DNA of 64,000 nt from positions 59,368 through 123,367 of the forward strand of contig CAYTCJ010000004.1 of the NCBI GenBank assembly GCA_964436545.1, written 5' to 3'. The first letter of the stretch is position 1. Each line of letters begins with the position of its first letter. The notes beneath the pieces are model-generated. The model searched no databases. It was not told the origin of the DNA and was given only the letters and a program-made list of their open reading frames with translations. The DNA is from an uncultured Candidatus Saccharibacteria bacterium. GTDB taxonomy: Bacteria > Patescibacteriota > Doudnabacteria > UBA920. Positions 26,266 through 43,332 of this stretch are shown one piece after another. A program made the translations under genes and the position numbers.

Positions 26266-26619
26266 ATGATTACTTCTAACGGGGTGGACGATTGTGTATT
26301 TTGTAACATTATTAATAAAACCATTGAGGCTACCGTAGAAATGGAAGACGCTGAGGTGCTGGTAATTCGGGATATTTTGCCCAAAGCGCCGGTGCACTTG
26401 TTAATTTTGCCCAAAATTCATTTGGTCTCGGTTAATGAATTAACTCAGGAACACAGCGCTTTGGTGGCCAAGTTGGTTTTGACAGCTAAAGCCATGGCGG
26501 AAAAGTTTGGCATAAACCAGACGGGTTATAAGTTAATTTTTAACGTGGGGAGAGACGGCGGTATGGTAATTCCCCATTTGCATTTACATTTGTTGGGTGG
26601 TAAAAATTTGGGGGAATAG
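26266..26619 (+). CDS. HIT-family (histidine triad) hydrolase
   Basis: HLHLHLL histidine-triad motif. Confidence 0.88.
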   Translation: MITSNGVDDCVFCNIINKTIEATVEMEDAEVLVIRDILPKAPVHLLILPKIHLVSVNELTQEHSALVAKLVLTAKAMAEKFGINQTGYKLIFNVGRDGGMVIPHLHLHLLGGKNLGE

Positions 26620-26766
26620 TCCCGTTAGAAGTAAGATACCAGAAGTATCTGCAGTTGTGCCTAAGGCACAACTGACTTCTAACGGGATTTTGTTTGACTA
26701 AAAATGTTAAATTCAGTATACTTAGCTAAGTATTAAATCTAAAATTGAAAGGATAGGTGAATTTAA

Positions 26767-27006
26767 GTGGTTGAAGTAAAAAAGAAAGACGGAGAAAGTT
26801 TTGACTCTTTGTTCCGCAGATTTTCCAGAAAAATCCAACAAAGTGGCGTGCTTATTCGTGCCCGCCGAACCCGTTTTTATACTCGGGAAAAAAGTCGCAA
26901 TTTGCAAAAAGTGGCTGCCAGAAGAAGAGCTAAAAATCGAGAAGAGCGAGAAGAGCTGAAAAAATTAGGCAAGCCAATGCCAGTAAGAAAATATGGACGA
27001 AGATAA
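26767..27006 (+). CDS. rpsU: 30S ribosomal protein S21
   Basis: GTG start. FRRFSRK ... GVLIRARRTRFYTREKSR and a basic tail. Confidence 0.82.
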   Translation: MVEVKKKDGESFDSLFRRFSRKIQQSGVLIRARRTRFYTREKSRNLQKVAARRRAKNREEREELKKLGKPMPVRKYGRR

Positions 27007-27108
27007 ACTAAATGGCAAAAATTAAAAAATGACAAAATTGACAAAAATAACCGCAGTTTAATTTTTTGTTCACTTCCGTCGTTTTTGTCATTTTTATTTA
27101 CTTACAAA

Positions 27109-27546
27109 ATGAATTTACAAGAAATAGAAACTCAATTAAAAGATGCCATGAAAGCCAAAGACACGGTAGCCGTGGGAGTTTTACGTGGGTTAAAAACTCG
27201 GGTGCAAAACGAGCAAATCGCCAAACAAAAAACTTTGGAAGCCGAAGAAATTTTTGCCCTGATTCGCAGTGAAATTAAAAAGCGCAAAGAAGCTTCCGAG
27301 AGTTACACCACCGGGGGCAGGTTGGATTTGGCGGAAAAAGAAAGTCAAGAAGCGGAAATGCTAACCAAGTTTTTACCCGCTCAAATGCCCGAAGCCGAAG
27401 TTTTAACTCACATTGAGCAAGTGTTGGCTGGGCAGAGTTTTACTGCCAGCGATTTTGGGAAAGCGATGGGTGCGGTAAAAGCCAAGCTCGGCAATAATGT
27501 AGATAACGCTTTGGTTGCCAAATTATTGAAACAGAAACTAAAATAA
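27109..27546 (+). CDS. GatB/YqeY-domain protein
   Basis: YqeY-like helical protein (LKDAMKAKD ... LRGLKT ... ). Start taken at MNLQ; the tracked ORF starts 24 nt earlier at 27085, inside an upstream TGTCA motif. Confidence 0.75.
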   Translation: MNLQEIETQLKDAMKAKDTVAVGVLRGLKTRVQNEQIAKQKTLEAEEIFALIRSEIKKRKEASESYTTGGRLDLAEKESQEAEMLTKFLPAQMPEAEVLTHIEQVLAGQSFTASDFGKAMGAVKAKLGNNVDNALVAKLLKQKLK

Positions 27547-27643
27547 TCTCGATCCGAATGCTCCAAATTAAATCCGAATGAACCTAATGTTCTTGAAGCA
27601 TAATTCGGATAATTCGGATGTATTCGTTGATTAGGATCGCCTT

Positions 27644-28900
27644 ATGAGTAAAGAACAATACATCACCGGCTTAGATATAGGCACGTCGGCCATTCGGGCG
27701 GTGCAAGGGCGCATTAATCCGGAAGACGGAGTTTTAAATGTGATTGGCGTTTCGGAAAGTGAAAGTTTTGGAATTCGTAAAGGTGTCCTAGTGGACATTG
27801 AAGAAGCTGTTTCCGGGATTTCCAGTGTGCTGGAGAAAGTGGAGCGCATGACCGGTGTGCCCATTGCGAGCGCTTATGTTTCCGTTTCCGGCAGTCATAT
27901 TTCTACTTTGCAAAGTCACGGAGTAATTGCCGTGTCTCGGGCCGATGGGGAAATTAGCGAAGCCGATGTAGTGAGGTGTGTAGATGCCAGCCAAGCGATT
28001 TCGGTTCCGCAAAACCGAGAAATTTTACACGTGTTTCCGAAAAGCTTCACCCTAGACGGCCAAACAGGCATTCGGGATCCGCTCGGAATGAGCGGGGTGC
28101 GTTTGGAAGTGGATACTTTAATTGTGCAGGCAGGCTTGCCGTTTATTCGGAATTTAAGTCGCACTGTGGTGCAGGCCGGTTTGGAAATTAACGATTTAGT
28201 CTTAGCGCCTTTGGCTACTGCCGAATGCGTATTAACCAAACGACAAAAAGATTTAGGCGTAGCAGTGGTGGATTTGGGTGGTGGCACTACCAGTGTGGCG
28301 GTGTTTGAAGAAGGGGATTTGCTCCACGCTTCGGTGTTGCCCATTGGACAACAACATTTAACTAACGATTTAGCCATTGGCCTAAGAAGCAGTATTGAAA
28401 CAGCGGAAAAAGTTAAACTGCTCTATGGTCATACCGACCCTAAGGTGGTAAATAAATTAGAGGAAATTGATTTGTCCAAAATTGACGAGCAGGAAAAGGA
28501 AAGTGTGGAAAGGGGCTATGTGGCGGAAATTATGGAAGCTAGACTGGAAGAAATTTTGGCCATGGTGGCTAAGGAACTTAAAAATATTGGCCGAGATGGC
28601 AAACTGCCTTCCGGCATAGTGCTTACCGGCGGAGGCGCCAAACTGCCGGGCATTGTGGAATTGGCTAAAAAACATTTGCGTTTGCCGTGTATTTTAGGCA
28701 AACCGCAAAATATTACTACGGTGATAGATAAAATTGACGATCCCAGTTTTGCGACTGTGGTGGGGTTATTGCTGTGGGGACAAAAATTTGGACAAGCGAG
28801 CAGTTTTAGCTCAGGCACCATGTTGGCTTCGGTCAAAAGCGCTTTTTCCCGCCCGGGCGCGGAAAAGGTAAAAAAGTGGTTGAGATCATTTCTTCCTTAA
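27644..28900 (+). CDS. ftsA: Cell-division protein FtsA
   Basis: Actin-fold ATPase motifs (GLDIGTSAIRAV; VVDLGGGTTSVAVF; GIVLTGGGAKL). Confidence 0.9.
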   Translation: MSKEQYITGLDIGTSAIRAVQGRINPEDGVLNVIGVSESESFGIRKGVLVDIEEAVSGISSVLEKVERMTGVPIASAYVSVSGSHISTLQSHGVIAVSRADGEISEADVVRCVDASQAISVPQNREILHVFPKSFTLDGQTGIRDPLGMSGVRLEVDTLIVQAGLPFIRNLSRTVVQAGLEINDLVLAPLATAECVLTKRQKDLGVAVVDLGGGTTSVAVFEEGDLLHASVLPIGQQHLTNDLAIGLRSSIETAEKVKLLYGHTDPKVVNKLEEIDLSKIDEQEKESVERGYVAEIMEARLEEILAMVAKELKNIGRDGKLPSGIVLTGGGAKLPGIVELAKKHLRLPCILGKPQNITTVIDKIDDPSFATVVGLLLWGQKFGQASSFSSGTMLASVKSAFSRPGAEKVKKWLRSFLP

Positions 28901-29142
28901 TATAGACGAAACCCTAGATCTGTCCTTTGAAGTCCACGAGAGATGGACGAAGGAGGAAGCCTTGGCGAAGTAGGGCTCAAGTCCTTTCTGCCCTAGATGA
29001 AATCTTGCGTATGATTCGGTTTTTTAGTAATTTTTTTTGTAAGGTAAAGGATTATATGGATAGTTTTTAATATAATATCCGGCTTTAATAAGCCGGATAT
29101 TATATTTTTAAACTTATTTAAGATGAAAAATAAGCCAAAACC

Positions 29143-29171
29143 TTGACATAAAGTAAAAAATGTTATATAAT
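29143..29171 (+). promoter_or_regulatory. Consensus sigma-70 promoter (TTGACA-17-TATAAT) with no downstream ORF
   Basis: cTTGACAtaaagtaaaaaatgttaTATAATg. The next about 290 nt are non-coding with several hairpins before the repeat/GC-island region. Confidence 0.4.
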
Positions 29172-29466
29172 GCGAAGTTATATTATTATTCCTAACTTTC
29201 CAGTTTGGGAAGATCATATAACACAGCTCTTTAAATTATCCCTTAAGGAGGGATTAGACCCTAGTTAAATAGTGCCAATTTGGTTTGGAAATTTAACAGG
29301 GTAGAGTGTTACTTTTTAACCGCGGATTTGTGGCTGAGTTTAAAGTCAGTTGCAAATTAATTGCGGATGGTTTGGGTCTGCCAAGTGGCAGAAGTTGATG
29401 GCGAACGAATGCATAAAGGGCATTTGTCCCATGCGATAGAGATTTCATTTTATTTCACAGATGTTA

Positions 29467-29505
29467 GCGATGCGAATATACGAATGCATGCTAATGATAC
29501 GAATG
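29467..29505. repeat. 39-bp direct repeat, copy 1 of 4, bounding the GC-rich cassettes
   Basis: GCGATGCGAATATACGAATGCATGCTAATGATACGAATG. Other copies at 31079-31117, 31200-31238 and 34444-34480. Confidence 0.75.
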
Positions 29506-29635
29506 AATACGGATAGGGGAATCATAACTCCCCCTACCCCCTCTTTGGAAAAGAGGGGGGAAGAGAGGAATAAAAATGGAATAGCTATTGCATGGGGCAA
29601 ACAGACAAGCCCCCAATGCAGAAAGGAGCACAAAA

Positions 29636-30769
29636 ATGTGCTCATCAATCACGCGTCTTATCCTCGCCGTGGGTCTCGCGACCCTCGGCACAACCGTGTC
29701 CGCACAGTACGCCCCGACGCCCGACCCGGGCGAGCGAGCGCTCCGGCAGCAGCAGGCGCCACCCCCGCCGGCTCCGAAGCCCGAGGCTCCGAAGCCCGAG
29801 GCTCCGAAGCCCGAGGCTCCGAAGCCCGACCCGTTTTTTGATGGTAGCTGGGGAGGATGGAGGGCTTGGCTCGGAGGGATCGCCCTCCTGATCGCCGCCG
29901 GCATCGGGGTGGTGGTTTGGCGTCGCCGGCGGAACAACCGCCCCGCACACGACGATCATGGCAACGACCCCCAGCCCCCCGCGAACCCGAACCCGAACCC
30001 GAACGCGCCGCCGCCCCCCACGCCTGTCAACCACATGATAGCGTTGATGCTCGTCGGTGGTGCGCTCGCACTCGCAACCCTCGGTGCCCCGTCCGTGTCC
30101 GCCGCCCCTATGGAGGGGTGTGTGGTGACGGCTGTCAACGGGATGGTCGGCGACGCTGAAATGCCAGTGTTGGTGTCCGGCGCGGACAATTTCGTTTCGT
30201 GCCACGCCCCCGGCGTGTCGGAAGTGAAGCTCACGGATGGGAAGGGGCAGGTTGTTCCCGTCAAGAAGCTGGTAAAGACCAGCGATGGGTTCAATTTCTC
30301 GTACACGCCCCCGGCCGGAACCGCTGCGGAGTTGCATGTGCAAGCTGGTAGTCGCAAGGTTGCCTCGCTTTACACTAACAGCGCCTTCGGCGCCTGGACT
30401 GCCTACACGGCGGTTCAGAGCGTCCGGCCGGAGATCCGCGCCGCGGCCACGGACGCCAGCGCCGCGCTCACCGCCGCCAAGTCCGCGGCCGAGGCGGTGA
30501 CGAAGCTCACCGGCGTGGTGGCCGACCACGGCACCCGCATCACCGCGCTGGAGTCTCGGCCCGCCCCGACGGTCGACCTCTCGGCCTACGACCGCCGGCT
30601 TCGCGAGCTCGACGGCGAGCTCGCGAAGGTTAAGGCCGCACAGGTCGCCACCGACGCCCAGGTAGCCAAAAACGCCGAGGGGCTGGAAGCCCTCGGCAAT
30701 CGCCGAGTCGGCAAGGGCGGAATTTTCGGCAGGTCGGGCAGGCTCGCCGACCTGCCCGAGGCCAAGTAG
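29636..30769 (+). CDS. GC-rich (about 68%) secreted/anchored Pro-rich repeat protein with a coiled-coil C-terminus (possibly two fused cistrons)
   Basis: RBS AAAGGAG then ATG; signal peptide MCSSITRLILAVGLATLGTTVSA; (PKPEA)x4 encoded by a 15-bp tandem DNA repeat at 29762-29821; TM helix plus RRRR; second signal-like segment at 30037. Codon usage is foreign to the host. Confidence 0.55.
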   Translation: MCSSITRLILAVGLATLGTTVSAQYAPTPDPGERALRQQQAPPPPAPKPEAPKPEAPKPEAPKPDPFFDGSWGGWRAWLGGIALLIAAGIGVVVWRRRRNNRPAHDDHGNDPQPPANPNPNPNAPPPPTPVNHMIALMLVGGALALATLGAPSVSAAPMEGCVVTAVNGMVGDAEMPVLVSGADNFVSCHAPGVSEVKLTDGKGQVVPVKKLVKTSDGFNFSYTPPAGTAAELHVQAGSRKVASLYTNSAFGAWTAYTAVQSVRPEIRAAATDASAALTAAKSAAEAVTKLTGVVADHGTRITALESRPAPTVDLSAYDRRLRELDGELAKVKAAQVATDAQVAKNAEGLEALGNRRVGKGGIFGRSGRLADLPEAK

Positions 30770-31078
30770 CCGGCGGCCAAGAAGGCGCCGGCGAAAAAAG
30801 AAAAAGAAGAAGAAAAGGAGGAAGAAGGAGAGGTCTAACCTTTCCCCCTACGCATAGCCAGTGCAGGCTATGAGTAGGGTAACAACCAAGCATGGGGGAT
30901 TTGTGCACTCAAATCCCTCCAGTTCTTTCTTTCTGTTTTGGGTAGTTTTTACCCCCTCCCTTAACCCTCCCCACAAGGGGGAGGGAAAAAGCAGGGTGAA
31001 TACCACCCCCTCCGATTAACATTGGAGAACATCTCCTATTTTAGGAGGAGAAGAGAAAGAGGGAAATGGAGAAAAATC

Positions 31079-31117
31079 GCGATGCAAATATACGAATACA
31101 TGCTAATGATGCGAATT
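31079..31117. repeat. 39-bp direct repeat copy 2
   Basis: GCGATGCAAATATACGAATACATGCTAATGATGCGAATT. Confidence 0.7.
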
Positions 31118-31199
31118 TACGGATTCTACAGATATCTACAGATGAAGACAAAAGACACAAATATTGGTCCACAGATCACACGGATACACAGATATTAGT

Positions 31200-31238
31200 G
31201 CGATGCGAATATACGAATGCACGCGAATGATGCGAATG
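31200..31238. repeat. 39-bp direct repeat copy 3
   Basis: GCGATGCGAATATACGAATGCACGCGAATGATGCGAATG. Confidence 0.7.
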
Positions 31239-31353
31239 TATATAAATAGTTAATAATAGTTGTAAGTTGTAAGTTGGTAAGTAAAACAGAAATCAGCAAA
31301 GCAGTAAGCACATTAAAAAATCCCGCCAGTAGGGCGGGTGAGAATAAGAAAAA

Positions 31354-31611
31354 TTAAAAAGGAATAGGTATACCGGTTTTAGCTGATACTTGTTTTGCCC
31401 AATCTTCTAGTCTTTCTATTCGGTGGCGATTGACTATCATTTCCTGTTCAAAGCCTTTTACGGTTTTACAAAGATAATCCAGAGTGGAGGTTATGGAGTC
31501 AACTTTTTGTTCTAATTTGTTAAAGCGAGTGTCAATATCCGCCTTCATTTCATCTAAATATTCAAATAAGGGCTGAAAGTTTGTGGTTGTCGTGGGAGTT
31601 TTTTTAGGCAT
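31354..31611 (-). CDS. Small hypothetical coiled-coil protein (85 aa)
   Basis: AT-rich ORF inside the island. No motif. Confidence 0.35.
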   Translation of the reverse strand: MPKKTPTTTTNFQPLFEYLDEMKADIDTRFNKLEQKVDSITSTLDYLCKTVKGFEQEMIVNRHRIERLEDWAKQVSAKTGIPIPF

Positions 31612-31864
31612 AAGGATAGAAAAAATTATGTTTATTATATTATATCAAGTTATTGAATTTTTGGAAATATACAGCTAAAATATAATGCGGTTTTTTGGTG
31701 GGTAGCTTTTTTTACCCCCTCCTTCCGATGTGTATCGGAAGACTCCCCCTATGTTAGGGGGAGAGGGGAGAAGAGAGGTACCCGGCAAGAAAACGCGGTA
31801 CAAGTGTCCCTTGCCGGGATGCGAAAAATTTTGAGGAGGAAAAATATCAATTGCAAGATGATAG

Positions 31865-31913
31865 TTTACGGATGTTACAGATACCTACAGATGGGGACAA
31901 AAAGGCACGGATG
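31865..31913. repeat. 45-49-bp ACRGAT-phased repeat unit (copy U1)
   Basis: TTTACGGATGTTACAGATACCTACAGATGGGGACAAAAAGGCACGGATGG. Related units at 33048-33096, 34303-34351 and 34361-34407. Confidence 0.65.
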
Positions 31914-32027
31914 GAAAATCATAACCCCCTCCTAACCTCCCCTTCCGCCAGAGGCGGACAGGTATCTTAAGGGGAGGAAGAAGAGAGAAAAACCGGATGA
32001 GCAAGAAAGGACATTTTTTGTCATTCC

Positions 32028-32111
32028 GAATCCTGATATTCATCAGGACAAGTTTAATTTGGAATCCAGAAAATGGATTCCCGTTTTCACGGGAATGACA
32101 GCAAATAAGCA
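32028..32111. repeat. Family-A palindromic element immediately upstream of the 32234 cassette gene
   Basis: TGTCATTCCGAATCCTGATATTCATCAGGACAAG ... GGATTCCCGTTTTCACGGGAATGACAG. Confidence 0.55.
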
Positions 32112-32233
32112 ATTTTATTATTGCTATAAGCTGATCACTGGGCACTTACCACTGATCACTAATTTGTGTTTTTTCTTGCTCGTCCGGTGCCTTTGGGCAA
32201 ACCAATCCGGACAGGCGAGAAAGGAGAATTCGC

Positions 32234-32968
32234 ATGAGTTTACTCATTGTGATTGGTCTCCTGATTTTCGCCCCATGGTGCGCCCAGGGGCAAACTCGGC
32301 TGCTGGTCCCGCGGGCGGACTCGGCTACCGCCATGGTGCGGTGCGGGGCCAATCTGGAAAGCGTAAAGGCGGAGAATCAATTGACCCGTCAGTACGTTTT
32401 TACAGGGGAGGAGACTCTGACGGGGATGCAATACTGTGTTGAGAGTCGCCACGCTCTCGTGGATGACCGCAACCGGTACCGTGTTCCGGCAGGGACCATT
32501 GGCTGGTTGTCTTCGGACGGCCAGTCGGTGGTTCTGGAGCAGTGCGTCAATATGGCGCACTGCGAGGGTTGTCCTCCCGCCCCACCTCCTCCGCCCCCGC
32601 CCCCGCCGGCGCCGAAGCCGGAACCCAAGCCGGAACCGCCCCCACCGGCACCCGAGCCCCCGGCGCCAAAGCCGGAACCCACCCCCGAGCCGGTGGTTGT
32701 CCGGCCCGAGCCACCCCCGCGGGTGGTTTTGCCCAAGCCCGAGCCACTGGCGCCGGCGCCGAGGCCCGCTCCCGTGGTCAAGAGGGGCGGGCACGGGAAG
32801 CTTATCGGGGGGTTGGTTGGGGCGGGGGTCGCGGGGGCAGTGGCGTATTTCGCCACTCGCGACCGCCACGACGCGTCCGCCCCGCCGGCCCCGGGCGTAA
32901 AGCCGGGGGTGCCGGTAGTTTCCCCGGCCTCACGGCCGGGGGGAGCCGGATTCGCCATCCGGTTCTGA
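32234..32968 (+). CDS. GC-rich (about 70%) secreted Pro-rich surface protein with a C-terminal TM anchor
   Basis: RBS AAAGGAGAATTCGC then ATG; signal peptide MSLLIVIGLLIFAPWCAQG; Cys-containing domain; PPAPPPPPPPPPAPKPEPKPEP linker; LIGGLVGAGVAGAVAYFA TM. Confidence 0.55.
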   Translation: MSLLIVIGLLIFAPWCAQGQTRLLVPRADSATAMVRCGANLESVKAENQLTRQYVFTGEETLTGMQYCVESRHALVDDRNRYRVPAGTIGWLSSDGQSVVLEQCVNMAHCEGCPPAPPPPPPPPPAPKPEPKPEPPPPAPEPPAPKPEPTPEPVVVRPEPPPRVVLPKPEPLAPAPRPAPVVKRGGHGKLIGGLVGAGVAGAVAYFATRDRHDASAPPAPGVKPGVPVVSPASRPGGAGFAIRF

Positions 32969-33047
32969 CATCTTGCCCCAAGCGGTAATGGGCGAATTTT
33001 ACCGCAAAGACAGGAACTTCGTGTGTCCTGTCTTTTTTCGTTTACAG

Positions 33048-33096
33048 TTTACGGATGCTACAGATAACTACAGATGGGGACAAAATATACGGATGC
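33048..33096. repeat. ACRGAT-phased repeat unit (copy U2)
   Basis: TTTACGGATGCTACAGATAACTACAGATGGGGACAAAATATACGGATGC. Confidence 0.65.
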
Positions 33097-33270
33097 AGAG
33101 TTTTATACGACGTATAGGACTCCGCCAGCTGGCGGATAAGTAGTATAAGACCTATACAAATATAGTAAGGAATTTTAACTTATTCTAAAGATTGACAAAA
33201 ATAGCAAAATGTGTTAAAATTGAATGTCCCAAAATTTTGGGGATTTTTGTGAGGTGGTATTTTTAGAACT

Positions 33271-33300
33271 GGATTCCGGCTCAAGGCCGGAATGACAAAA
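33271..33300. repeat. Family-A palindrome upstream of the protease cassette
   Basis: GGATTCCGGCTCAAGGCCGGAATGACAAAA. Confidence 0.55.
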
Positions 33301-33367
33301 ATCGGGATCACAGTCAAGGATAAGCCTTAGAAATATCACTTTCCAAAAATTCCATAGGAGGTGGGCG

Positions 33368-34144
33368 ATGGCCCAAGAAAATCCTCGTCGCTGGAGCGAC
33401 GAGGATCTGCTGCTTTTAATAGTGGCTCTCTTGTGCCTGTCAGCAGGTTTGTTGCTGATAGGAGATGAGAGTGGGGAAACGGTTCCCCACGGGCCAGTTG
33501 CCCCGCCCCAGCAACAATACCAAACCCCCCGCCCGAGGGAAGAGTATCGGGCGCCCCGCCGGTGGGAAGAACCGGCACCTCGACAGGAGGCACCTGCCCC
33601 GGCCCCTCAGCGAACCACACCCGCCCCTGGGGTGTGGGAGGACATTCGGTCGAGGAATGTCCTTGTCCGGCAAGGGGCTGGACAGGGAAGCGGGGTCCTC
33701 ATTGGCCACGGGCTGGTCCTGACGGACTTTCACGTGGTTGATGGGGGATGGGGGGCGGTGATTGACGGTCACGGGACCGCAATCGTGCAAGCTTGGGACG
33801 AGGGTAATGACCTCGCAATCCTTAAGCTTGTGGGATATGACCCCACACCCCGTCTGGACTTCGCGTTTGACCCGGACTTGCTCCGTCCGGGCACACGTCT
33901 GGTTACCGTGGGTAACCCTAGAGGGGTCACGGTGTCTCAGACTGGGTGGGTGGAAGCCGGGTCAGGTCAAGGCTTCTGGGCCAGGATGGACACCTGGTCC
34001 GGGCCCGGGGCGAGTGGGAGCTTAGTATACTCGCTGGATGGTGCCCCGGTGGGCATTGTCCAGCAGTGGGACGGAACCGGCATTCGGGTGAAGTGCCGAG
34101 ATCTCCGTCCCATTGTCCGACTCCTCAACTATATTGGGCGCTAA
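33368..34144 (+). CDS. GC-rich trypsin-like (S1 family) serine protease with N-terminal membrane anchor and Pro-rich linker
   Basis: RBS TAGGAGGTG. Catalytic triad contexts: VLTDFHVV (His), NDLAILKL (Asp) and GPGASGSLVY (Ser). Confidence 0.68.
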   Translation: MAQENPRRWSDEDLLLLIVALLCLSAGLLLIGDESGETVPHGPVAPPQQQYQTPRPREEYRAPRRWEEPAPRQEAPAPAPQRTTPAPGVWEDIRSRNVLVRQGAGQGSGVLIGHGLVLTDFHVVDGGWGAVIDGHGTAIVQAWDEGNDLAILKLVGYDPTPRLDFAFDPDLLRPGTRLVTVGNPRGVTVSQTGWVEAGSGQGFWARMDTWSGPGASGSLVYSLDGAPVGIVQQWDGTGIRVKCRDLRPIVRLLNYIGR

Positions 34145-34302
34145 TTGCGCCTACCTTTCCAGAGGCAGGGTTCAAGTCCTCTGGCGCGTGCTTAGACAAC
34201 ACGCGAAAGGTTTTTTACGAACAAGGCGGGTTAAACCGACCTTAAGTAGAAAAATCACTTAATTGTCTCCGCTCAGAGCTTTGTGCTTCTGGGCGGTTTT
34301 TT

Positions 34303-34407
34303 TGTTTACAGATGCTACGGATGTCTACAGATGGGGACAAAAAGACACGGATAAATACAGCTTACAGATGCTACGGATGTCTACAGATGGGGACAAAAGA
34401 CACGGAT
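34303..34407. repeat. Two tandem ACRGAT-phased units (U3, U4; 58-bp period)
   Basis: TTACAGATGCTACGGATGTCTACAGATGGGGACAAAA(A)GACACGGAT twice. Confidence 0.7.
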
Positions 34408-34443
34408 ATTGGTTCACAGATCATGGATTTACACAGATGTTAT

Positions 34444-34480
34444 GCGATGCGAATATACGAATGCATACGAATGATACTAA
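34444..34480. repeat. 39-bp direct repeat copy 4
   Basis: GCGATGCGAATATACGAATGCATACGAATGATACTAAT. Confidence 0.65.
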
Positions 34481-34602
34481 TAAAAACAGATTGCAGATAA
34501 TTTATATGACATATTAGACCTATAAGTCGCATTATCTTTATCATTTGACACAGAAAAAAAACAGTGTCATAGTAATTAAAAATAAGCGAATGAAATAAAA
34601 AT

Positions 34603-34932
34603 ATGCCAACTCATAACATAAATATCGCAGAACAAAAATTAAGAGACTTTGCCTTAAAGCTGTTAGAAGAAAAACAGTTAGACATTGGTGATGAAGAATT
34701 AAAAGCCCAATTAGCCGAAGATTTATACGAGCGTTTGGAGGAACGGGTGAATGCGGAAATTTTAGCCGGGTTGCCCCCGGAAAAACTGGAAGAGTTTGAT
34801 AAACTGTTAACCAGTGGAAGCAATGAGCAATTAAGCGAGTTTTGTTTAAAAAATATTCCCCATTTACAAGAACTCTTAAATACCACTTTAACCCAATTTA
34901 GAGTAAGGTATTTAGGTTTGGAACAAAAATAA
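34603..34932 (+). CDS. Small acidic hypothetical protein (109 aa)
   Basis: ORF directly upstream of the giant gene. Helical and E/L-rich. Confidence 0.45.
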   Translation: MPTHNINIAEQKLRDFALKLLEEKQLDIGDEELKAQLAEDLYERLEERVNAEILAGLPPEKLEEFDKLLTSGSNEQLSEFCLKNIPHLQELLNTTLTQFRVRYLGLEQK

Positions 34933-34952
34933 GTATAGTCAAATAAATTATA

Positions 34953-34980
34953 GATTCCGCATCAAGTGCGGAATGACAAA
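34953..34980. repeat. Family-A palindrome overlapping the start of the giant ORF
   Basis: GATTCCGCATCAAGTGCGGAATGACAAA. Confidence 0.55.
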
Positions 34981-34983
34981 CCC

Positions 34984-37900
34984 ATGAGTGAATACGGTCG
35001 CTTTTTGTCACCAGAAGCTCGGCACGAAGCGGAAAAACCAAAATTTGTTTTTACAGATATTAGCGACATTCAAGAAGGAATGGCGCAAGATGCTTCGTTG
35101 GCGCAATTTAACGAAAAACCTGAAGCGCTGGAAGAGAATAATGTTTCTTGGTGGAAGAAACCTTTTAAAAAGGCTTTTTGGAAAAATGTAGGGAAGCGAG
35201 GAACCAGTTTAGGCCGAAGTATTTGGAAACAAAATTTAGCTCGGGATTATTACGAAGTTTCGGGAAAAAAACAAGCCGAGGCCAAAATGCAGGCAAGTGG
35301 CAGTTTGTTTGCAGTGGAAAAAAAGTTTGACCCCAATGAGCCGGGCATAAGCGAAGCCGAAAAACAAAACCGACTTAAAGCGCAAAAAACCGCGCATGAT
35401 GAATATGTAAGTGCCATTACCCGAAGGTTTGCGGGAGCTACGGGTGAACTGGCAGGTGATTTTGTCCATAAAGAACACGGCGGTGAAGCGGTGGAAACTT
35501 TAGGCAGGACTGAGGCGGAAGTCCAGATTAAGCGAAAATTAGAAGAAACGGTTAGGGCTTTTGCCGGCGGGGAGATTAGCGAAGAACAGGTTCTGGAAAA
35601 AGAAAAGGCCATTTGGGCAGAAATTAAAGGGGTTAAACCGGAAGTGGTTAAAAAGGGGAAAATGTATGCGAGTAATTTGTTAGAAATGGCCAAATGGGCA
35701 AAGGAAGAAGTAGAAAAACAAGTGAGACAGAATATTGACCACAACTTGGCTGTGAGAAATTTACAGTTAGATTTTGATGTGGTAGTAGGTAGGGCAAAAA
35801 GTGGCGCAAAAACCGAGGCGCAATTTAATGCTGTGGAAAACGCGGTAGATAAAATTATGGCTAAAACCCGAGGTTTGCCTAGCATTATTTTTAACGAAGC
35901 CACAATTACTGCTGCGGTTACCGCTGCCTATTTTGTAGAAAAGAGTTTATTTACCAAGGGGCTTTATAGTGTTGCTGGTTTAGTAGGATTTGGAGTGGGG
36001 GCAGGTGCGACAGCGGCTTTTAAAGAAGGTAAGACTTTAGAAAAAGAAAGAATGCAACATGCCCGGGAAATGGCGCAAGGTAGAAAGTTTGAGGAAAGTA
36101 GTGCAACTCGGCGGAAGGAGTTGGAAAAATTCCGTTTAAAGTTTCAGACAGCCGAAGAATTGGAACAGAATTTAGACGCCAAGTTGTTTAATTTTTTGGA
36201 AAGTGGAACAGATTTACGAACACTAAGTCCGGAAGGGTATAAACAAGCTTTAGAAGCCGTGGCCGAAATTGACGCGCGCATTTTGGAAGGCGAGAGGGGA
36301 GTAGTGGTAAAGAAAAGAAAATGGTTAAAGTTTTGGAAAAAAGAGTATAAAGAAGAAAGACATAGTGCCGACTTAATTGGTTATTCCGATCCTACGCAAA
36401 TTGCCAAAGAAGAAGGTCAGTTAGATATGGCTCGGGCTGCCGCCAAAATCGCCTTAAAAAAGTGGTGTTTGGCCAATGGTAAAACCGAAGCTCAGTTTAA
36501 AGCAGATTTGCAAGCGAGTGTAGAAGCCAAGATTCATGGGTTTTATGCAGGTGAGGAAGGGATAGACAAACAGAACGAAAGATTTAAGGAATTTAAAAAG
36601 AAAAAAATGTGGCAGGCGGGGAAAAAGGCTGCGGTATGGGGGACAATTTTTGGCACGGCTATTCAAGAAGCCAGTGCCTTTAAGCAGGACCACACTTACG
36701 GACTTGCAGAACATGCTTGGGATGCCTTTAGGGGGAACGAGCATCATTTGGCTCCAGAGGAAACCGCTACAGCCCTAGAGAATGCTTTTGCCTATGGGCA
36801 AAAAAATATCAACGAAGGTTTGGATTATTTATTTCCTACAGCGCACGCAGCCGGTCCGAATATAGAAGTACAGATTGGTGGGAGTAAATACAGTCTGCCC
36901 GATGGTTTTAGATTAGAAGACAATCCGGCTACGGCTAATCCGAACGATAAAGTTTTAATTGATAGCAAAGGTGTTTCGCATACGTTAGAGTTTAAAGCCG
37001 ACGGCACGCCCACGGCTGATAGCAAAAAGTGGTTGTTAGATAATGGTTATAAACTTGATGAAATAATTTCGCCCGCCGGTCCCAAAGGGATTCATAGTTT
37101 GGATGTAGACGCTACCAAAAAACAATTTCCTGACCTCGCGCATCATACGCGTATAGACTGGCACGATGAACCGGGTAAGTTTAAAAGCGCAATTCATAAT
37201 ATGTGGCTGGAGTTTGAAGGTAAACAGCAAATGGGTTATTTGGTAACTCGAGGAGACAAAGTATATTTAGACTGCAGTAAAGTGATTCAAAATTTTGTGA
37301 AAGAGGTATCTGAAAGAATTAACGATCCGAGTTTTGGCCAAGTGGAAGGGTATACTAATGCAGACGGCAGTCCGTTTGTGGACAGTAAAATGATGCACTT
37401 AAAGGACCAAATTCAGCAGGCCATTAATAATGGCGACATTAATAGATATTTTCAAGCTGTGGTGATTCCCACCGAAGGGGCGAATAGCGCAGGTTTGAGC
37501 GATTTAGTGCAAGGTGCAGACAGTAGTGGTTTAATTGAGCTGAACGGCAAGTATGATTGGTCTAAAATGTTTATTGATCCGGCTACGGGCCATGTAGACC
37601 CTAAAATGCTACACGATGGGCATTTGCCGTTTCGGTTTTTGGAAATGCGGTTTGATGGCCACGTAATGAACACGGCCCAAGGAGCCGGAGAAGCCGGACC
37701 TATGCCTTTCTTTAAACTAACGCCACCGCTAGATGAATTGCCACCGACTACTTTCCCGCCCCTAACTTATGTGGGGAGAAGAAAAGGTTTGGAGGAAACT
37801 AACTGGACACCACCCCCTCAGCGTCCAAAACGAGAACCTTTGCCAGAAATACCATATTATGGATATTATAATAGTCCAGAACGAAGTGAATATTATCGTC

Positions 37901-40311
37901 AGAGAATATCTCCAACGTTAAGAGAAAATCCAGATGCTATTTTAGATTTTAATAGAGAGATGGATTGGTACATTTCTAATCTTGAAAATCAAAACCCAGA
38001 ATACGCAGATGAATTAAGAGAGTTAATGCAACAGCCTGATATGTTAATTCCAATGTCTAATGAATGTAAGGCTGTTGCTTGCATTCCAGTTTATGCTTTA
38101 GGTGAGGGAAAAGGTATAGAACACACTCTTGAACAGTATAGGAAACAAATTATAAATGGTTCGGTAAAATCTGATGAATTTGAGTTATTGTTATTCTTGA
38201 ACCATCCACAAGATAGACTTAAAGGTATGACTATTTTATCTGGGGCAGAAGAAAGAGTTAGAAATGGGAATCCGGAAGCGTATGACACAGCTGAGGTGAT
38301 TAGGCAGTATAAACTCAAGCATCCTGAATTAAAAATTAGAGTACTAGAAAAAGAATACGAAACCAGACCAAAGTGGGGAGTAATAATTAAATCAGTTTAT
38401 GATGTTGCTTGTTTAAGGGCTAAGTCGCGTTCCAATCCAGTAAGTAAGGATATAGTTTTACTTACAAATGATGCGGATGTGAGAGATATGTCCGATACGT
38501 ATTTAAGATTAGTCATTGATGAGTTTGATAAAAGTGATGGTAGTAAACAGATTGATGGGTTAGCTACTAGAATGGATGATGACCCCAATGTTTATAGAAA
38601 ATGGCCAAATTTCTTTTTGGCAAATCGTTTTCGTCAATTTCTTGAAGCTCAAACCAGAGCAGGCATAAGTGGTTCTGGGGAAATAAATTCATTACCTTAT
38701 AATTTCTCATCCCGTGGTTCAAAAGAAAAGTATATTAATACTTGGGGCGCCAGTACGGCTTTGAGAGGTAGTACGTATTGTGGGATAGGCGGGGCAGATT
38801 TGAGTGTAGATGCAGGGGCCGATTCTGAGTTAGGGAGAGTAATTACCAATTCCAGAAGAGGTGGTAAGAGAAAATTAGATAATGCAAATTTTCCCATAAA
38901 GTTTTTGAATTCCGCATGGCTTGAGACAGACCCTAGAAGGCCGTTGGGGATTTATAAGAAAGGTAAGCCATTAGTAGCTACTTGGAGCGAATGGGATGAA
39001 ATGAATGTTTATGGAGAGACTCTTGCAGATCAGAATGAAGGCGATTCAGAAGCTTTAGATCCGGTAAGACTTTCCAAAGAAATAAACGTCATGATGAAGT
39101 CATGGTGGGGTTTGGATGCTGATTCAATGGTTGTTAAAAAAGCATTAGGCTGGTTAGGATTAAAAGAAGGTGATTATGATATCGTGGATATTGGATATAC
39201 AGATAGGGTAGGTGTTCAAAAAACTTACAGAGGAATCAAAATTAATAATATTTCGAATTTAAAGACTGGAGTAGATGCTTGGAAAACCAAGCGGGAAAGA
39301 CTTGATGAGGCGAAAGCAAATCGTTTGAAAAAAGCTCAAGCGGTGAAAAGTATTGGACAAGCATCAACCCCTTCAAACCCAGATAATGGCAAAATATGGG
39401 ATGAAGAAACTTTTAGATTTATTGAACCTCAGCCGGAAGCGCCAATTAATCAAACCACAGAAGATGATGATTTGTGGGATGATGAAGGTAATAGGCCTGT
39501 GCCCAAAAATTTAAAATCGGGTAAGCTTCCTTCTGTGGCTAGTGAGCCTAGCAGACTGCCAGAAAGCGGTGGAAATACTAAACCGGTTGAGTCAGGGCCT
39601 GGCAGGGGAGCAAACGAGCCAGTACAATCAGCTCAAAGAGAAGCTCCGGCACCCAAAGCTGAACAAGGTAATGTGAGAGAAAGAGAATCTAGGGAAACCA
39701 AAATGATTGAGCTATTAAATGCTTTTGATGCCAATCCTTATGAATTTATTTATGACAAAGGATTAGCAAGAGTTAGCGAAGCCGGGTTTAGCACCAATAG
39801 GTTTTTAAAAGAATTAAGACTTCAACATGGTATCAGTAATGCCGATTTGGCAACCATAAAACAAAGAACTAGAGTTATGAGTCCCAAAGGTCCAATAATG
39901 GGGAAAGGCAGAGAAGTGGCGCAATATGCAAGGATGATTTTAGCCACTAAACCCGAGATGCGTGCACAATGGATAGGATTGGATGACGGAAGGTATAATA
40001 AATTTTCTAAGGAGTTGATTGTTGCGGAAGTAAAAAAAGATATTAGCCAAAAAACTTTTAATCCAGATAAGATTGTAGAGTTAGAAAGGGAATTCGCACA
40101 AGGGCCGATTTTTGTGCTGGACAGTGTTTTGTCGGCTAATCCGGCTGTGTTAAGAAAAGCTAATGAGGCTTTTAAACAGGCAATAAACAATGGCGAAGCG
40201 CAAGATAATTCAGATGATAAAGCTAGAGTTTTTAAAACTACCTTAGACGCATACCAACAAGGTTCATTAAAGCTTACCAAGCAACGAGGCAGAAAAAGCC
40301 AGAAAAAATAG
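34984..40311 (+). CDS. Giant (1776-aa) membrane-anchored protein of unknown function; possible GT-A-like central domain
   Basis: Continuous ORF. K/E-rich coiled-coil N-terminal third; two TM helices around aa 300-350 (TAAVTAAYFV ... GLVGFGVGAGATAAF). Central segment with IPVYALGEG ... LLTNDADV, reminiscent of nucleotide-sugar transferase IPVYN/DxD motifs (weak). Alternative GTG start at 34966. Confidence 0.7.
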   Translation: MSEYGRFLSPEARHEAEKPKFVFTDISDIQEGMAQDASLAQFNEKPEALEENNVSWWKKPFKKAFWKNVGKRGTSLGRSIWKQNLARDYYEVSGKKQAEAKMQASGSLFAVEKKFDPNEPGISEAEKQNRLKAQKTAHDEYVSAITRRFAGATGELAGDFVHKEHGGEAVETLGRTEAEVQIKRKLEETVRAFAGGEISEEQVLEKEKAIWAEIKGVKPEVVKKGKMYASNLLEMAKWAKEEVEKQVRQNIDHNLAVRNLQLDFDVVVGRAKSGAKTEAQFNAVENAVDKIMAKTRGLPSIIFNEATITAAVTAAYFVEKSLFTKGLYSVAGLVGFGVGAGATAAFKEGKTLEKERMQHAREMAQGRKFEESSATRRKELEKFRLKFQTAEELEQNLDAKLFNFLESGTDLRTLSPEGYKQALEAVAEIDARILEGERGVVVKKRKWLKFWKKEYKEERHSADLIGYSDPTQIAKEEGQLDMARAAAKIALKKWCLANGKTEAQFKADLQASVEAKIHGFYAGEEGIDKQNERFKEFKKKKMWQAGKKAAVWGTIFGTAIQEASAFKQDHTYGLAEHAWDAFRGNEHHLAPEETATALENAFAYGQKNINEGLDYLFPTAHAAGPNIEVQIGGSKYSLPDGFRLEDNPATANPNDKVLIDSKGVSHTLEFKADGTPTADSKKWLLDNGYKLDEIISPAGPKGIHSLDVDATKKQFPDLAHHTRIDWHDEPGKFKSAIHNMWLEFEGKQQMGYLVTRGDKVYLDCSKVIQNFVKEVSERINDPSFGQVEGYTNADGSPFVDSKMMHLKDQIQQAINNGDINRYFQAVVIPTEGANSAGLSDLVQGADSSGLIELNGKYDWSKMFIDPATGHVDPKMLHDGHLPFRFLEMRFDGHVMNTAQGAGEAGPMPFFKLTPPLDELPPTTFPPLTYVGRRKGLEETNWTPPPQRPKREPLPEIPYYGYYNSPERSEYYRQRISPTLRENPDAILDFNREMDWYISNLENQNPEYADELRELMQQPDMLIPMSNECKAVACIPVYALGEGKGIEHTLEQYRKQIINGSVKSDEFELLLFLNHPQDRLKGMTILSGAEERVRNGNPEAYDTAEVIRQYKLKHPELKIRVLEKEYETRPKWGVIIKSVYDVACLRAKSRSNPVSKDIVLLTNDADVRDMSDTYLRLVIDEFDKSDGSKQIDGLATRMDDDPNVYRKWPNFFLANRFRQFLEAQTRAGISGSGEINSLPYNFSSRGSKEKYINTWGASTALRGSTYCGIGGADLSVDAGADSELGRVITNSRRGGKRKLDNANFPIKFLNSAWLETDPRRPLGIYKKGKPLVATWSEWDEMNVYGETLADQNEGDSEALDPVRLSKEINVMMKSWWGLDADSMVVKKALGWLGLKEGDYDIVDIGYTDRVGVQKTYRGIKINNISNLKTGVDAWKTKRERLDEAKANRLKKAQAVKSIGQASTPSNPDNGKIWDEETFRFIEPQPEAPINQTTEDDDLWDDEGNRPVPKNLKSGKLPSVASEPSRLPESGGNTKPVESGPGRGANEPVQSAQREAPAPKAEQGNVRERESRETKMIELLNAFDANPYEFIYDKGLARVSEAGFSTNRFLKELRLQHGISNADLATIKQRTRVMSPKGPIMGKGREVAQYARMILATKPEMRAQWIGLDDGRYNKFSKELIVAEVKKDISQKTFNPDKIVELEREFAQGPIFVLDSVLSANPAVLRKANEAFKQAINNGEAQDNSDDKARVFKTTLDAYQQGSLKLTKQRGRKSQKK

Positions 40312-40340
40312 GAAATAAGGGAATTAATATGTTCGGTTCC

Positions 40341-40367
40341 AAACCCCCCGATATTCTCGGGGGGTTT
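40341..40367 (+). terminator. Intrinsic terminator after the giant ORF
   Basis: AAACCCCCCGATATTCTCGGGGGGTTT plus a T-run. Confidence 0.55.
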
Positions 40368-40418
40368 GGGTTTAAATTTGGCATTTTTTACTTTTGTGCT
40401 ATACTGATTTTATATAAA

Positions 40419-40586
40419 GGGTCTGTTTCCAAATGTCATTTTGTCTGCAACTGTAAAATTTTGGCTACTTGTCACAAAAAATTTTTCCGCTTATCCTACG
40501 GATAAGCATCAAAATTTATTTGTGCCAATTTGCTCTAATTTAATAGTTTCGTCTTAAAAGCACATTCGGAAACAGACCCAAAACAA
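40419..40586. repeat. About 168-bp element bounded by 18-bp inverted repeats upstream of ftsZ
   Basis: GGGTCTGTTTCCAAATGT ... ACATTCGGAAACAGACCC. Internal CTTATCC-TAC-GGATAAG hairpin. Confidence 0.4.
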
Positions 40587-40685
40587 ATATCAAAATAAAA
40601 AATCAATCGTTTGTATTTTAAGGTTAACCTTTCAACACGTTTGATTTTTTGTTTGATTTAATTTATTCTGAAATTATCAACTAAA

Positions 40686-41912
40686 ATGAAATCACAAAAT
40701 CGTATGGGAGAAGTTAAACCAAAAGTTCAAAGTTTTGCCAGAATTAAAGTTTTAGGCGTGGGCGGGAGTGGCACCAGCGCTGTTAACCGTATGAGCGAAC
40801 TCGGCATTAAAGGCGTAGAATTTATTGCCATTAATACCGATGCGCAGGCTCTGCATAATAATAATGCAGATGTAAAAGTGCATATTGGGAAAAATATTAC
40901 CAAAGGTCTAGGCAGTGGCATGAATCCGGATTTAGGTCGGCAAGCGGCGGAAGAAAGCATTGAGGAGCTGGAGGAAGTGGTAGACAATGCCGATATGGTG
41001 TTTATCACTTGCGGGCTAGGGGGCGGAACCGGCACCGGAGCTTCGCCCATTGTCGCGGAGCTCGCTAAGAATAAAGGCGTCTTAACCGTTGCAGTCGTGA
41101 CCCGTCCGTTTACTTTTGAAGGCAGTAAAAGAAAAGAAGTGGCCGATGCTGGCTATGATAATTTAAAAGATAAAGTCGATGCCATTATTGCCATCCATAA
41201 CGATAGGATCCTGCAAATTATAGACAAGAAAACTTCACTCATAGATTCGTTTAAAACCGTAGACGAAGTTTTAAGGCAAGGCATTTCCGGTATTTCGGAT
41301 TTAATTACCACACATGGTTTGGTGAATGCTGACTTTGCCGACGTGCGTGCCATTATGCAAGACGCGGGCACAGCCATGATGGGGATTGGGCGAGCGAGTG
41401 GCGAGAACCGTGCGAGCGAAGCTGCGAAGCTCGCGGTAAATTCTCCGCTGTTAGATATGTCCTTAGACGGCGCAAAAGGAGTACTCTTTAATATTACCGG
41501 CGGAAAAGATTTGGGTATGTTTGAAATTGACGAAGCCGCGAAAGTGATTACCAAAAATATTGACTCCGATGCCAAAGTTAAGTTTGGCGCGGTGATAGAT
41601 GAAAACTTAACCGATGAAATTAAGATCACGGTCATTGCCACGGGCTTTGATGGCAACAATCGTTTAAGTGGTATGTCGCCCATAAGTTTTGATGAACCCA
41701 AAAAAGGTTTTTTGGGCACAGGCAATTTTAGCGCTCAACCCCAGAGCCCTCCGCAAACTGCGGTGGAATTAAGACGACCACTTTTTAACCCTAAACCAAT
41801 TGAACCTAAACAACCCCCAGTCATTCAAACTACTCAACCGACAGAAAATTTAAATGCAGATAACGAAGACGAATTGGAAATCCCGGCGTTCATTAGAAAG
41901 AAAATGAAGTGA
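40686..41912 (+). CDS. ftsZ: Cell-division GTPase FtsZ
   Basis: Tubulin signature GGGTGTG (GLGGGTGTGASPIVAE), T7 loop, and a variable C-terminal linker with conserved tail. Confidence 0.95.
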   Translation: MKSQNRMGEVKPKVQSFARIKVLGVGGSGTSAVNRMSELGIKGVEFIAINTDAQALHNNNADVKVHIGKNITKGLGSGMNPDLGRQAAEESIEELEEVVDNADMVFITCGLGGGTGTGASPIVAELAKNKGVLTVAVVTRPFTFEGSKRKEVADAGYDNLKDKVDAIIAIHNDRILQIIDKKTSLIDSFKTVDEVLRQGISGISDLITTHGLVNADFADVRAIMQDAGTAMMGIGRASGENRASEAAKLAVNSPLLDMSLDGAKGVLFNITGGKDLGMFEIDEAAKVITKNIDSDAKVKFGAVIDENLTDEIKITVIATGFDGNNRLSGMSPISFDEPKKGFLGTGNFSAQPQSPPQTAVELRRPLFNPKPIEPKQPPVIQTTQPTENLNADNEDELEIPAFIRKKMK

Positions 41913-43166: not shown

Positions 43167-43332
43167 TTATATATTCCACAGATCACTGATCCGCCAGCTG
43201 GCGGACACGGATACACAGATATTAGTGCGATGTGAATTGGTTATTAGAAAAAAATAAATAGCAATGAAAAACGCCCTTAGAGTTCTGGTTGAACCTTTGG
43301 GCGTTTTTGCTTTTGCGGGGAATGAACTCTGG

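Follow-up and report, generated by a model that had tools for sequence, protein, structure and literature searches.

The stretch of 64,000 nucleotides analysed here (part of contig CAYTCJ010000004.1, and as a whole referred to as the window) contains three genes, g1, g2 and g3, that are far richer in GC than their surroundings, and so raises the question of whether they are recent captures or long-standing residents of the genome. The genes form an island of ∼5.7 kb that splits a cell-division cluster (ftsA, island, DUF5663 gene, gene for a protein of 1781 amino acids (aa), ftsZ), with ftsA and ftsZ lying 11.8 kb apart (window 28900–40686). A preliminary description of the locus had proposed capture from an actinobacterial host. 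With some reserve, we favour instead the view that this is a strain-variable island of real, separately expressed genes, in which the g1 family is long resident and its GC-rich state old, and which does not stem from a recent actinobacterial capture. The genes on which the argument turns, including purC, are as follows (GC3, GC content at third codon positions).

29636–30769, plus strand: g1, 377-aa membrane protein; GC 68.5 %, GC3 0.81
32234–32968, plus strand: g2, orphan 244-aa predicted type I membrane protein; GC 68.6 %, GC3 0.75
33368–34144, plus strand: g3, 258-aa N-terminally anchored serine protease; GC 62.2 %, GC3 0.64
43333–44220, minus strand: purC (SAICAR synthetase), fourth GC-rich single-gene island; GC 62.6 %, GC3 0.79

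Base composition of the island genes

At a resolution of 1 kb the GC content of the window lies between 34 and 48 %, with the exception of four bins: 30001–31000 (64 %), 32001–33000 (62 %), 33001–34000 (54 %) and 43001–44000 (56 %). In a profile drawn at 200 nt, the rises and falls match the ends of three plus-strand open reading frames (ORFs), and exact steps in GC content at start and stop codons, with a Shine–Dalgarno sequence preceding the gene, occur four times in the window (g1–g3 and purC). Adjoining genes have 36–47 % GC and a GC3 of 0.31–0.46, and 19 host genes pooled have 42.1 % GC. From this background all three island genes deviate strongly, with codons that are rare in the host making up 19–24 % of their total; the range of 64–70 % GC given in the preliminary description holds for g1 and g2, with g3 falling slightly under it. 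Recoding the three proteins with host codon usage gave 54–58 % GC, compared with 62–69 % observed and 42 % in the host. Approximately half of the GC excess comes from a protein composition rich in Ala, Pro, Gly, Arg and Val, and approximately half from codons ending in G or C, a synonymous preference that was found in each domain of all three proteins.

We considered whether GC-rich fragments of another organism might have been joined to an AT-rich contig during assembly or binning. In favour of such an artefact, the Logan assembly of the same run stops at 29554 and resumes at 32922, with g1 and most of g2 missing there, and short repeats lie at the breakpoints. Against it, Logan contig L001 (run SRR11567520) covers 32922–34335 at 100 % identity, taking in the 3′ end of g2, the spacer, g3 and the right flank, and the same assembly also holds window 26382–29554. 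Moreover, at least five further assemblies, made from different samples, have a GC-rich g1-like ORF between a low-GC leader and a low-GC terminator, and the fourfold coincidence of GC steps with start and stop codons following a Shine–Dalgarno sequence likewise argues for genuine genes. A chimera, which the preliminary description had allowed for, is thus very unlikely indeed; the 5′ junction of g2 alone is without independent support.

A small gene family resident in low-GC relatives

Among ∼15 billion proteins, g1, g2 and g3 are each singletons at 90 % identity. The C-terminal part of g1 led to one relative, P0017, at 58 % identity (48 % over the full length), and a profile search of 1.84 billion representatives returned 10 proteins at E ≤ 0.001, eight of them credible, g1 included. 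This search added P0018, P0020, P0021, P0022, P0023 and P0024; the family is therefore very small, at about eight clusters among those representatives. One candidate, P0019 (2318 aa), was rejected as a repetitive adhesin-like protein in which a short motif had been matched 18 times. A tblastn search of phage genomes with g1 gave no match, nor did an early metagenome scan with a two-sequence g1 alignment, from which only poor patterns could be built.

Family members have a signal-like N-terminus (with a Met-Cys start in the closest ones), the motif AQYAPTENPA, a transmembrane segment, a linker, a second hydrophobic segment, an immunoglobulin (Ig)-like domain, a coiled coil and KTGxFRS near the C-terminus; g1 has both this architecture and the family's place between ftsA and DUF5663. 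Wherever genomic context is visible, the family resides in low-GC genomes resembling those from the candidate phyla radiation (CPR), and it occupies the same slot in the relatives L090 and L093. In L090 the order is rpsU, YqeY, ftsA, AbiEii genes, g1 homologue (GC3 0.65), a protein with signal peptide, Pro-rich linker and transmembrane segment (GC 0.57), DUF6922 and AbiEii genes, DUF5663 and giant protein; in L093 it is g1 homologue, DUF5663, giant protein and ftsZ. Around the g1 homologue of L089 the non-coding flanks of the window are shared, and the conserved leader hairpin and ATGTGC start are found in L091, L092 and L094. These findings, namely the same slot in two relatives and common flanks in a third, argue against a recent gain of g1. 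The GC contents of the g1-like genes and of their surroundings are given below.

L089: g1-like gene 0.65; surroundings 0.27–0.47
L090: g1-like gene 0.60; surroundings about 0.36–0.46
L091: g1-like gene 0.56; surroundings about 0.3–0.5
L092: g1-like gene 0.64; surroundings about 0.3–0.5
L093: g1-like gene 0.62; surroundings 0.49

The preliminary description had itself stated that homologues of similar GC content in low-GC relatives would speak against transfer, and for g1 such homologues were found. No actinobacterial or high-GC-genome homologue of any of the three genes was detected in our searches, and those relatives of g1 whose context is visible stand in low-GC DNA. An actinobacterial acquisition is thus contradicted for g1, and for the orphans g2 and g3 it is unsupported.

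The age of the GC-rich state can be judged from the pair formed by g1 and its homologue in L089, which share 48 % aa identity at a synonymous divergence (dS) of about 1.0–1.1, i.e. saturated. The ratio of non-synonymous to synonymous divergence (dN/dS) is 0.22 in the Ig-like core and 0.5–0.8 in the linkers and the coiled coil, and GC3 is 0.81 and 0.83 in the two genes. At conserved codons of the four-fold type the third base differs in 62 of 125 cases, with C↔G the commonest difference, and this dominance indicates that the copies diverged under a GC-rich regime. Had g1 been imported before the divergence, it should have drifted toward the host GC3 of ∼0.4, which it did not; its GC-rich state is therefore old, and it is lineage-wide.

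The variable slot, its expression signals and its repeats

Relatives at 83 % nucleotide identity are collinear with the window up to the ftsA stop codon and fully different thereafter. The site after ftsA is an insertion hotspot whose content differs in each relative (L004:5730–7019; L005:4180–6378; L090:1950–8900). In one relative the slot holds a phage virion or tape-measure-like gene, in L090 it holds AbiEii toxin–antitoxin genes, and at L004:6897–7019 lies the end of another GC-rich gene (66 % GC). A close relative, L094, in which DUF5663 is 85 % identical, has another protein of 443 aa encoded directly upstream of DUF5663 (L094:278–1609, 63–72 % GC), with a g1-type leader, a Met-Cys-Asn start, two hydrophobic segments, a poly-Pro stretch and a helical tail. 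The body of this protein goes unrecognised by the g1 profile, and as only the N-terminal 60 residues are shared with that profile, it was not accepted as a member of the g1 family. In more distant relatives the stretch upstream of DUF5663 holds no GC-rich gene.

Within the island of the window, the following further features were annotated (D1, D2, D3 and D7 denote repeat families).

29143–29171, plus strand: sigma-70-type promoter of g1 (TTGACA, 17 nt, TATAAT; 12/12 consensus matches)
29172–29635, plus strand: 5′ leader of g1, long (∼465 nt) and AT-rich
29770–29829, plus strand: perfect tandem repeat in g1 (15 nt × 4; family D3), encoding APKPE repeats
30770–30838, plus strand: in-frame tail of g1, 22 Lys/Glu-rich codons past the TAG at 30767–30769
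30894–30945, plus strand: intrinsic terminator of g1, a GC-rich hairpin followed by a T-rich run
31078–31257, plus strand: short dispersed repeats, clustered (D2, D1, D7, D2), in the spacer that follows g1
31354–31611, minus strand: small ORF (85 aa, 36 % GC, coiled-coil-like)
31860–31911, plus strand: D1 repeat upstream of g2
33043–33094, plus strand: D1 repeat in the g2–g3 spacer
33192–33220, plus strand: g3 promoter-like site (TTGACA, 17 nt, TAAAAT; extended −10 TG; 11/12)
34269–34296, plus strand: terminator-like hairpin of g3 with T-run
34300–34501, plus strand: repeat cluster (D1 × 2, D7, D2) at the right island edge, just before the DUF5663 gene

The expression signals of the island, comprising promoter-like sites of their own for g1 and g3 and terminator-like hairpins and a Shine–Dalgarno sequence for all three genes alike, lie in AT-rich spacers of 0.4–1.5 kb. 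A promoter similar to that of g1 is present upstream of the g1 homologue in L091. The g1 leader contains a D2 repeat copy (29466–29524), a C-rich/G-rich hairpin and a conserved hairpin (about 29588–29621), the last directly 5′ of the Shine–Dalgarno sequence AAAGGAG (29622–29628). A leader motif, TTGCAnGGG...CCC...CAnAAAGGAGcACACAATGTGC, is common to the window, L089, L090, L091, L092 and L094, and the leader alignment (L089:200–700, L090:4780–5000, L091:2040–2252, L092:1–58 and L094:90–277) shows compensating changes in the stem; the g1 leader matched no Rfam family. Farther upstream in the leader, AGGAGG...GTGTTAC is a candidate start of a short leader ORF. Downstream of g1, positions 30842–31073 are 84 % identical to L089:1863–2098 over 239 nt, and here too the terminator hairpin has compensating changes. 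For g2, a hairpin with a T-run was read directly from the sequence at 33009–33038, and the small minus-strand ORF has a promoter-like site at 31667–31639 and a terminator-like site at 31338–31322.

Two repeat families, CTACAGATGGGGACAAAA and GCGATGCGAATATACGAATGCA, bracket each GC-rich gene including purC, and elsewhere in the window have just single weak matches. Repeat stretches lie at 29456–29559, 31079–31238, 31863–31912, 33043–33094, 34304–34477 and 43205–43237, the last of these a D7-like repeat near purC. They are built of heptamer-like units (TACAGAT/TACGGAT and ACGAAT) and are confined to AT-rich spacers. The repeat-bearing spacers also hold C-rich/G-rich hairpins and hairpins of the form GTCATTCC...GGAATGAC.

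purC and gene import

In a scan of GTDB species genomes, almost all of the best 80 relatives of purC bear the label Acidobacteriota, and the closest belong to the Bryobacterales, with 71–75 % amino-acid and 73–76 % nucleotide identity and loci of 62–66 % GC. Judged by these relatives, purC is a real import from Acidobacteriota, and the one nameable donor of GC-rich genes in the window is accordingly not actinobacterial. No other purine-synthesis gene was found among the window ORFs scanned. Because ComEC, DprA and a pilin are encoded, natural competence is a plausible route of uptake.

This import lends some weight to the possibility that at least g2 and g3 were likewise acquired recently from a high-GC donor, by way of the competence machinery and with the composition of the donor retained. 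Under such an explanation, which we consider rather unlikely, the donor would more likely be found in the Acidobacteriota than in the Actinobacteria. It is consistent with a GC3 of 0.64–0.81 set against 0.31–0.46 in the host and with the share of host-rare codons, with the match between the GC content of purC and that of its Bryobacterales loci, with the presence of the uptake genes, and with g2 and g3 being singletons that are missing from the few relatives whose islands could be seen. Horizontal transfer and genomic islands have, in addition, already been documented in Patescibacteria (PMC12455944). It is at odds with our failure to find any donor-side homologue of g1–g3 in 5.8 billion clustered proteins, phages or plasmids, the best non-self match of g3 being only 29 % identical. 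It is also at odds with g1 being common to low-GC relatives (twice in the same slot) and synonymously saturated but still GC-rich, with GC steps that coincide exactly with ORF ends next to expression signals of host type, and with the lack of an integrase, transposase or tRNA at the island.

Weighing long residence against allele exchange

A number of points weigh against long residence of the island genes as the explanation. The genome has a GC3 near 0.4, and by what mechanism these genes are held near 0.8 is a puzzle. Both g2 and g3 are without detectable relatives, so that their residence in the lineage is extrapolated from g1 and from shared architecture; they are presumably of the same class as g1 but could be recent imports from unsampled donors. 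The purC import, which has the same repeats at its flanks and a GC step just as exact at the ORF ends, lies a mere 9 kb off, and together with the uptake apparatus (ComEC, DprA, pilin) it implies that compositional foreignness can mean transfer in this genome. The survey of g1 contexts leaves out P0022, P0023 and P0025, the CPR assignment of the host is based on gene content and synteny and not on phylogeny, and surface exposure, function and diversifying selection are likewise deduced. Finally, the non-coding flanks of g1, at 84 % identity, have changed far less than its synonymous sites (p about 0.56), a contrast that suggests allele replacement by recombination in preference to simple vertical descent. 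Since the flanks are so much less diverged, alleles may well have been replaced by recombination within the lineage.

Taken further, the same contrast leads to a model in which a conserved expression site carries exchangeable GC-rich bodies, with alleles recombining among CPR strains and high GC kept up by GC-biased gene conversion at the hotspot or by selection on mRNA. This model refines the explanation by long residence and is compatible with it; as an explanation in its own right we regard it as improbable. Besides the flanks, it could account for L094, in which leader and first residues are shared and an unrelated body has the same architecture, for the short repeats that surround every GC-rich gene and have only single weak matches elsewhere, and for the lead of C↔G changes at conserved four-fold sites. 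It is less easily squared with purC, a metabolic and clearly foreign gene that exhibits the same pattern yet gives no sign of being hypervariable. The effects of biased conversion reported in bacteria are, furthermore, small beside a gap of 40 points in GC3. In its most specific form, to which we give equally little credence, ftsA and ftsZ would enclose a dedicated expression site (strong promoter, leader hairpin, conserved signal peptide) into which surface-protein bodies held at a GC3 of about 0.7–0.9 are swapped. Very strong GC-biased gene conversion at the hotspot could be the force behind this, or else an ongoing exchange with a high-GC partner such as an acidobacterium, as purC hints. 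If this were true, composition would mark the genes of a symbiont's interface with its host and could point to that host.

The three predicted proteins

Protein layouts were derived from hydrophobicity scans and from the helices of AlphaFold models, and signal peptides were called from hydrophobicity and AxA-like motifs only. On these grounds Pro-rich linkers and membrane anchors are present in all three proteins, in agreement with the preliminary description; its further statement that all have signal peptides is borne out by signal-like N-termini in g1 and g2, and g3 has what resembles a signal anchor.

In g1, a signal-like N-terminus (residues 1–23) is followed by APKPE repeats, a transmembrane segment (79–95) with RRRR after it, a Pro/Asn linker, a second hydrophobic segment (134–157), an Ig-like beta-sandwich (about 158–248) and a long helical hairpin (about 249–355). 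The model has a beta-sandwich with a predicted local distance difference test (pLDDT) value of 75–84 and then two long helices, and a fold search with it gave just generic, weak Ig/filamin-like matches (E ≥ 2 × 10−3). There was no family match in Pfam, NCBIfam or PHROG. The four-copy 15-nt repeat reported previously is indeed a perfect array, located ∼9 nt to the right of the position then given (29762–29821). A database version of g1 has 393 aa and starts at TTG 29588; because the Shine–Dalgarno sequence and ATGTGC are conserved in homologues, we place the start at ATG 29636 (377 aa), and the longer version is probably too long. As had also been recognised, the TAG at 30767 is followed by an in-frame tail rich in Lys and Glu, the translation of which gives PAAKKAPAKKEKEEEKEEEGEV before a TAA, with its end at 30838. 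Lys/Ala/Glu-rich tails form the C-termini of P0023 and P0024, two relatives, and of the L094 protein, and for this reason the post-stop stretch is probably a recently truncated ancestral tail.

The layout of g2 comprises a signal-like segment (1–19), a beta-rich domain of ∼95 residues with six Cys (20–113), a Pro-rich stalk of 74 residues (114–187), a transmembrane segment (188–208) and a short Pro-rich tail. A single-sequence structure model was of low confidence (pLDDT 51.5) and too poor for a fold search; no family match was obtained in Pfam, NCBIfam or PHROGs, and no homologue of the N-terminal domain was found. Kinship with the 343-aa protein beside the L090 g1 homologue was unsupported by BLASTP, the likeness being one of architecture only.

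For g3, the notion of an anchored S1 protease is supported by the following observations. A lone N-terminal transmembrane segment (13–32), in appearance a signal anchor rather than a signal peptide that is cleaved off, is followed by a Pro/Gln-rich linker (33–88) and a trypsin-fold domain (89–258); the protein passes the cutoff of Pfam Trypsin_2 (E = 6.5 × 10−11); and alignment with the HtrA structure 1l1j places His122, Asp148 and Ser216 on the catalytic motifs TDFH, NDLA and GASGS, in which the predicted His-Asp-Ser triad is intact. There was no match to a PDZ domain, and the protein ends 28 residues beyond the stretch matched by Trypsin_2. Matches to DegP/HtrA and MarP were weak and far under their cutoffs (30.5 bits against a cutoff of 416 for NCBIfam DegP/HtrA). 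The best non-self matches are 29–39 % identical across half to four-fifths of the protein, the top one, at 29 %, coming from an unrelated contig of 52 % GC. A tblastn search of phage genomes and a scan of viral contigs gave no match for g3, plasmids just generic DegQ-like matches (28–36 % identity), and PHROGs two weak ones (function unknown, E = 4.1 × 10−8; generic protease, E = 4.2 × 10−4).

The products of g1–g3 would be inserted in the membrane via their transmembrane helices, with the Pro-rich segments possibly serving as extended stalks across the envelope that hold the domains off the membrane. Displayed in this way would be the Ig-like domain and helical hairpin of g1, the small Cys-containing beta-rich domain of g2 and the PDZ-less HtrA-like protease of g3. 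At the cell surface such modules may serve adhesion or recognition as well as proteolysis, directed toward a partner cell or phage, as targets or defences, and a surface role at this interface would explain the fast turnover of the genes.

Host genome and setting of the island

The host chromosome is that of a small-genome bacterium. Its gene order in the window is dnaK, dnaJ, pilin, ABC/HlyD/FtsX exporter, topA, dprA, pth, der, LCP protein, signal peptidase, hisS, HIT, rpsU, YqeY, ftsA, island, DUF5663, 1781-aa protein, ftsZ, a protein resembling 23S-rRNA intervening sequence (IVS) proteins and bAvd, purC, nrdR, class II ribonucleotide reductase, comEC, ndk, relA/spoT and fpg. The occurrence of DUF5663, DUF6580, ComEC, DprA, a pilin and the rpsU–YqeY–ftsA cluster fits a CPR/Patescibacteria-like host, as the preliminary description had supposed.

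The DUF5663 gene and the giant protein, the latter without a domain match, occupy window 34603–40311; both also adjoin ftsZ in L093, and both are present in L090. At 41981–42337 the gene for the 23S-rRNA-IVS/bAvd-like four-helix protein is followed by short tandem repeats of the TTACAAC type, and no reverse transcriptase was found among the window ORFs scanned.

With respect to mobility, no integrase or transposase domain was detected among the scanned ORFs of the window, and no tRNA at or near the island. At gathering thresholds Rfam returned only two tRNAs for the whole window, both away from the island, and at permissive E-values it gave only chance-level matches on 28850–34650. The sole flanking repeat is a 16-nt AT-rich match in two direct copies (88 % identical) at the outer edges of the island, 29123–29138 and 34575–34590, which may have arisen by target duplication or by chance. 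An origin of the island as an integrative element or prophage was set aside, as no recombinase or phage gene is present among the scanned ORFs. Integron cassettes were rejected in the same way: the scanned window ORFs contain no tyrosine-recombinase domain (no dedicated attC model was run), and g1 and g3 have promoter-like sites of their own.

Comparison with known systems and significance

The locus resembles the variable islands described for Patescibacteria/CPR (PMC12455944) in its hotspot differing between close relatives, its competence genes and its cross-phylum purC import. It differs from them in lacking a mobility gene, in consisting of single-gene GC-rich units set in AT-rich spacers, and in having a g1 unit that is shared and ancient. 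We conclude that g1–g3 constitute a new, uncharacterised set of probable surface proteins within an already known kind of variable island.

With HtrA/DegP (S1C) and MarP, g3 has in common the trypsin fold, the catalytic motifs and an N-terminal transmembrane anchor, and would work as a membrane-tethered protease of this type; in the absence of a PDZ domain and with scores below the family cutoffs it does not belong to HtrA/DegP. MarP (Rv3671c) has four transmembrane helices, as opposed to one in g3. Like the Pro-rich surface proteins that span the wall of monoderm bacteria, g1–g3 combine a signal sequence, a displayed domain, a PxPE/PPPP stalk and a membrane anchor, a likeness to which the preliminary description had drawn attention. 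They differ in being anchored by a transmembrane helix, and no sequence homology to actinobacterial proteins was found. Anchoring by sortase (LPXTG) or as a lipoprotein (lipobox L-[AS]-[GA]-C) was rejected, since neither motif was seen on reading the three translations, in which LPEAK (g1) and APWC (g2) came nearest.

Surface-antigen genes of pathogens form hypervariable loci with conserved flanks and allele replacement. The present locus is similar in that flanks, leader and signal peptide are conserved, the body is divergent or replaced and the alleles are older than the flanks. It departs from such loci in that no silent cassette archive or recombinase was seen, in its CPR-like uncultivated host and in its extreme and persistent GC bias, which to our knowledge is not a feature of classical antigen loci.

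CPR/Patescibacteria are believed to lead a life attached to other cells, and their contact proteins are almost unknown beyond a few cultivated Saccharibacteria. The locus offers a candidate envelope-displayed set in a hypervariable slot, consisting of an Ig-like/coiled-coil family and, on stalks, a small domain and a protease. As g1 has kept its composition through saturating divergence, a gene-sized GC spike alone is no proof of recent transfer here, with the caution that purC, a true cross-phylum import from Acidobacteriota, yields the same GC picture. The persistence of a GC3 near 0.8 in an AT-rich genome is a small, testable evolutionary puzzle, and to us the most interesting residue of the finding.

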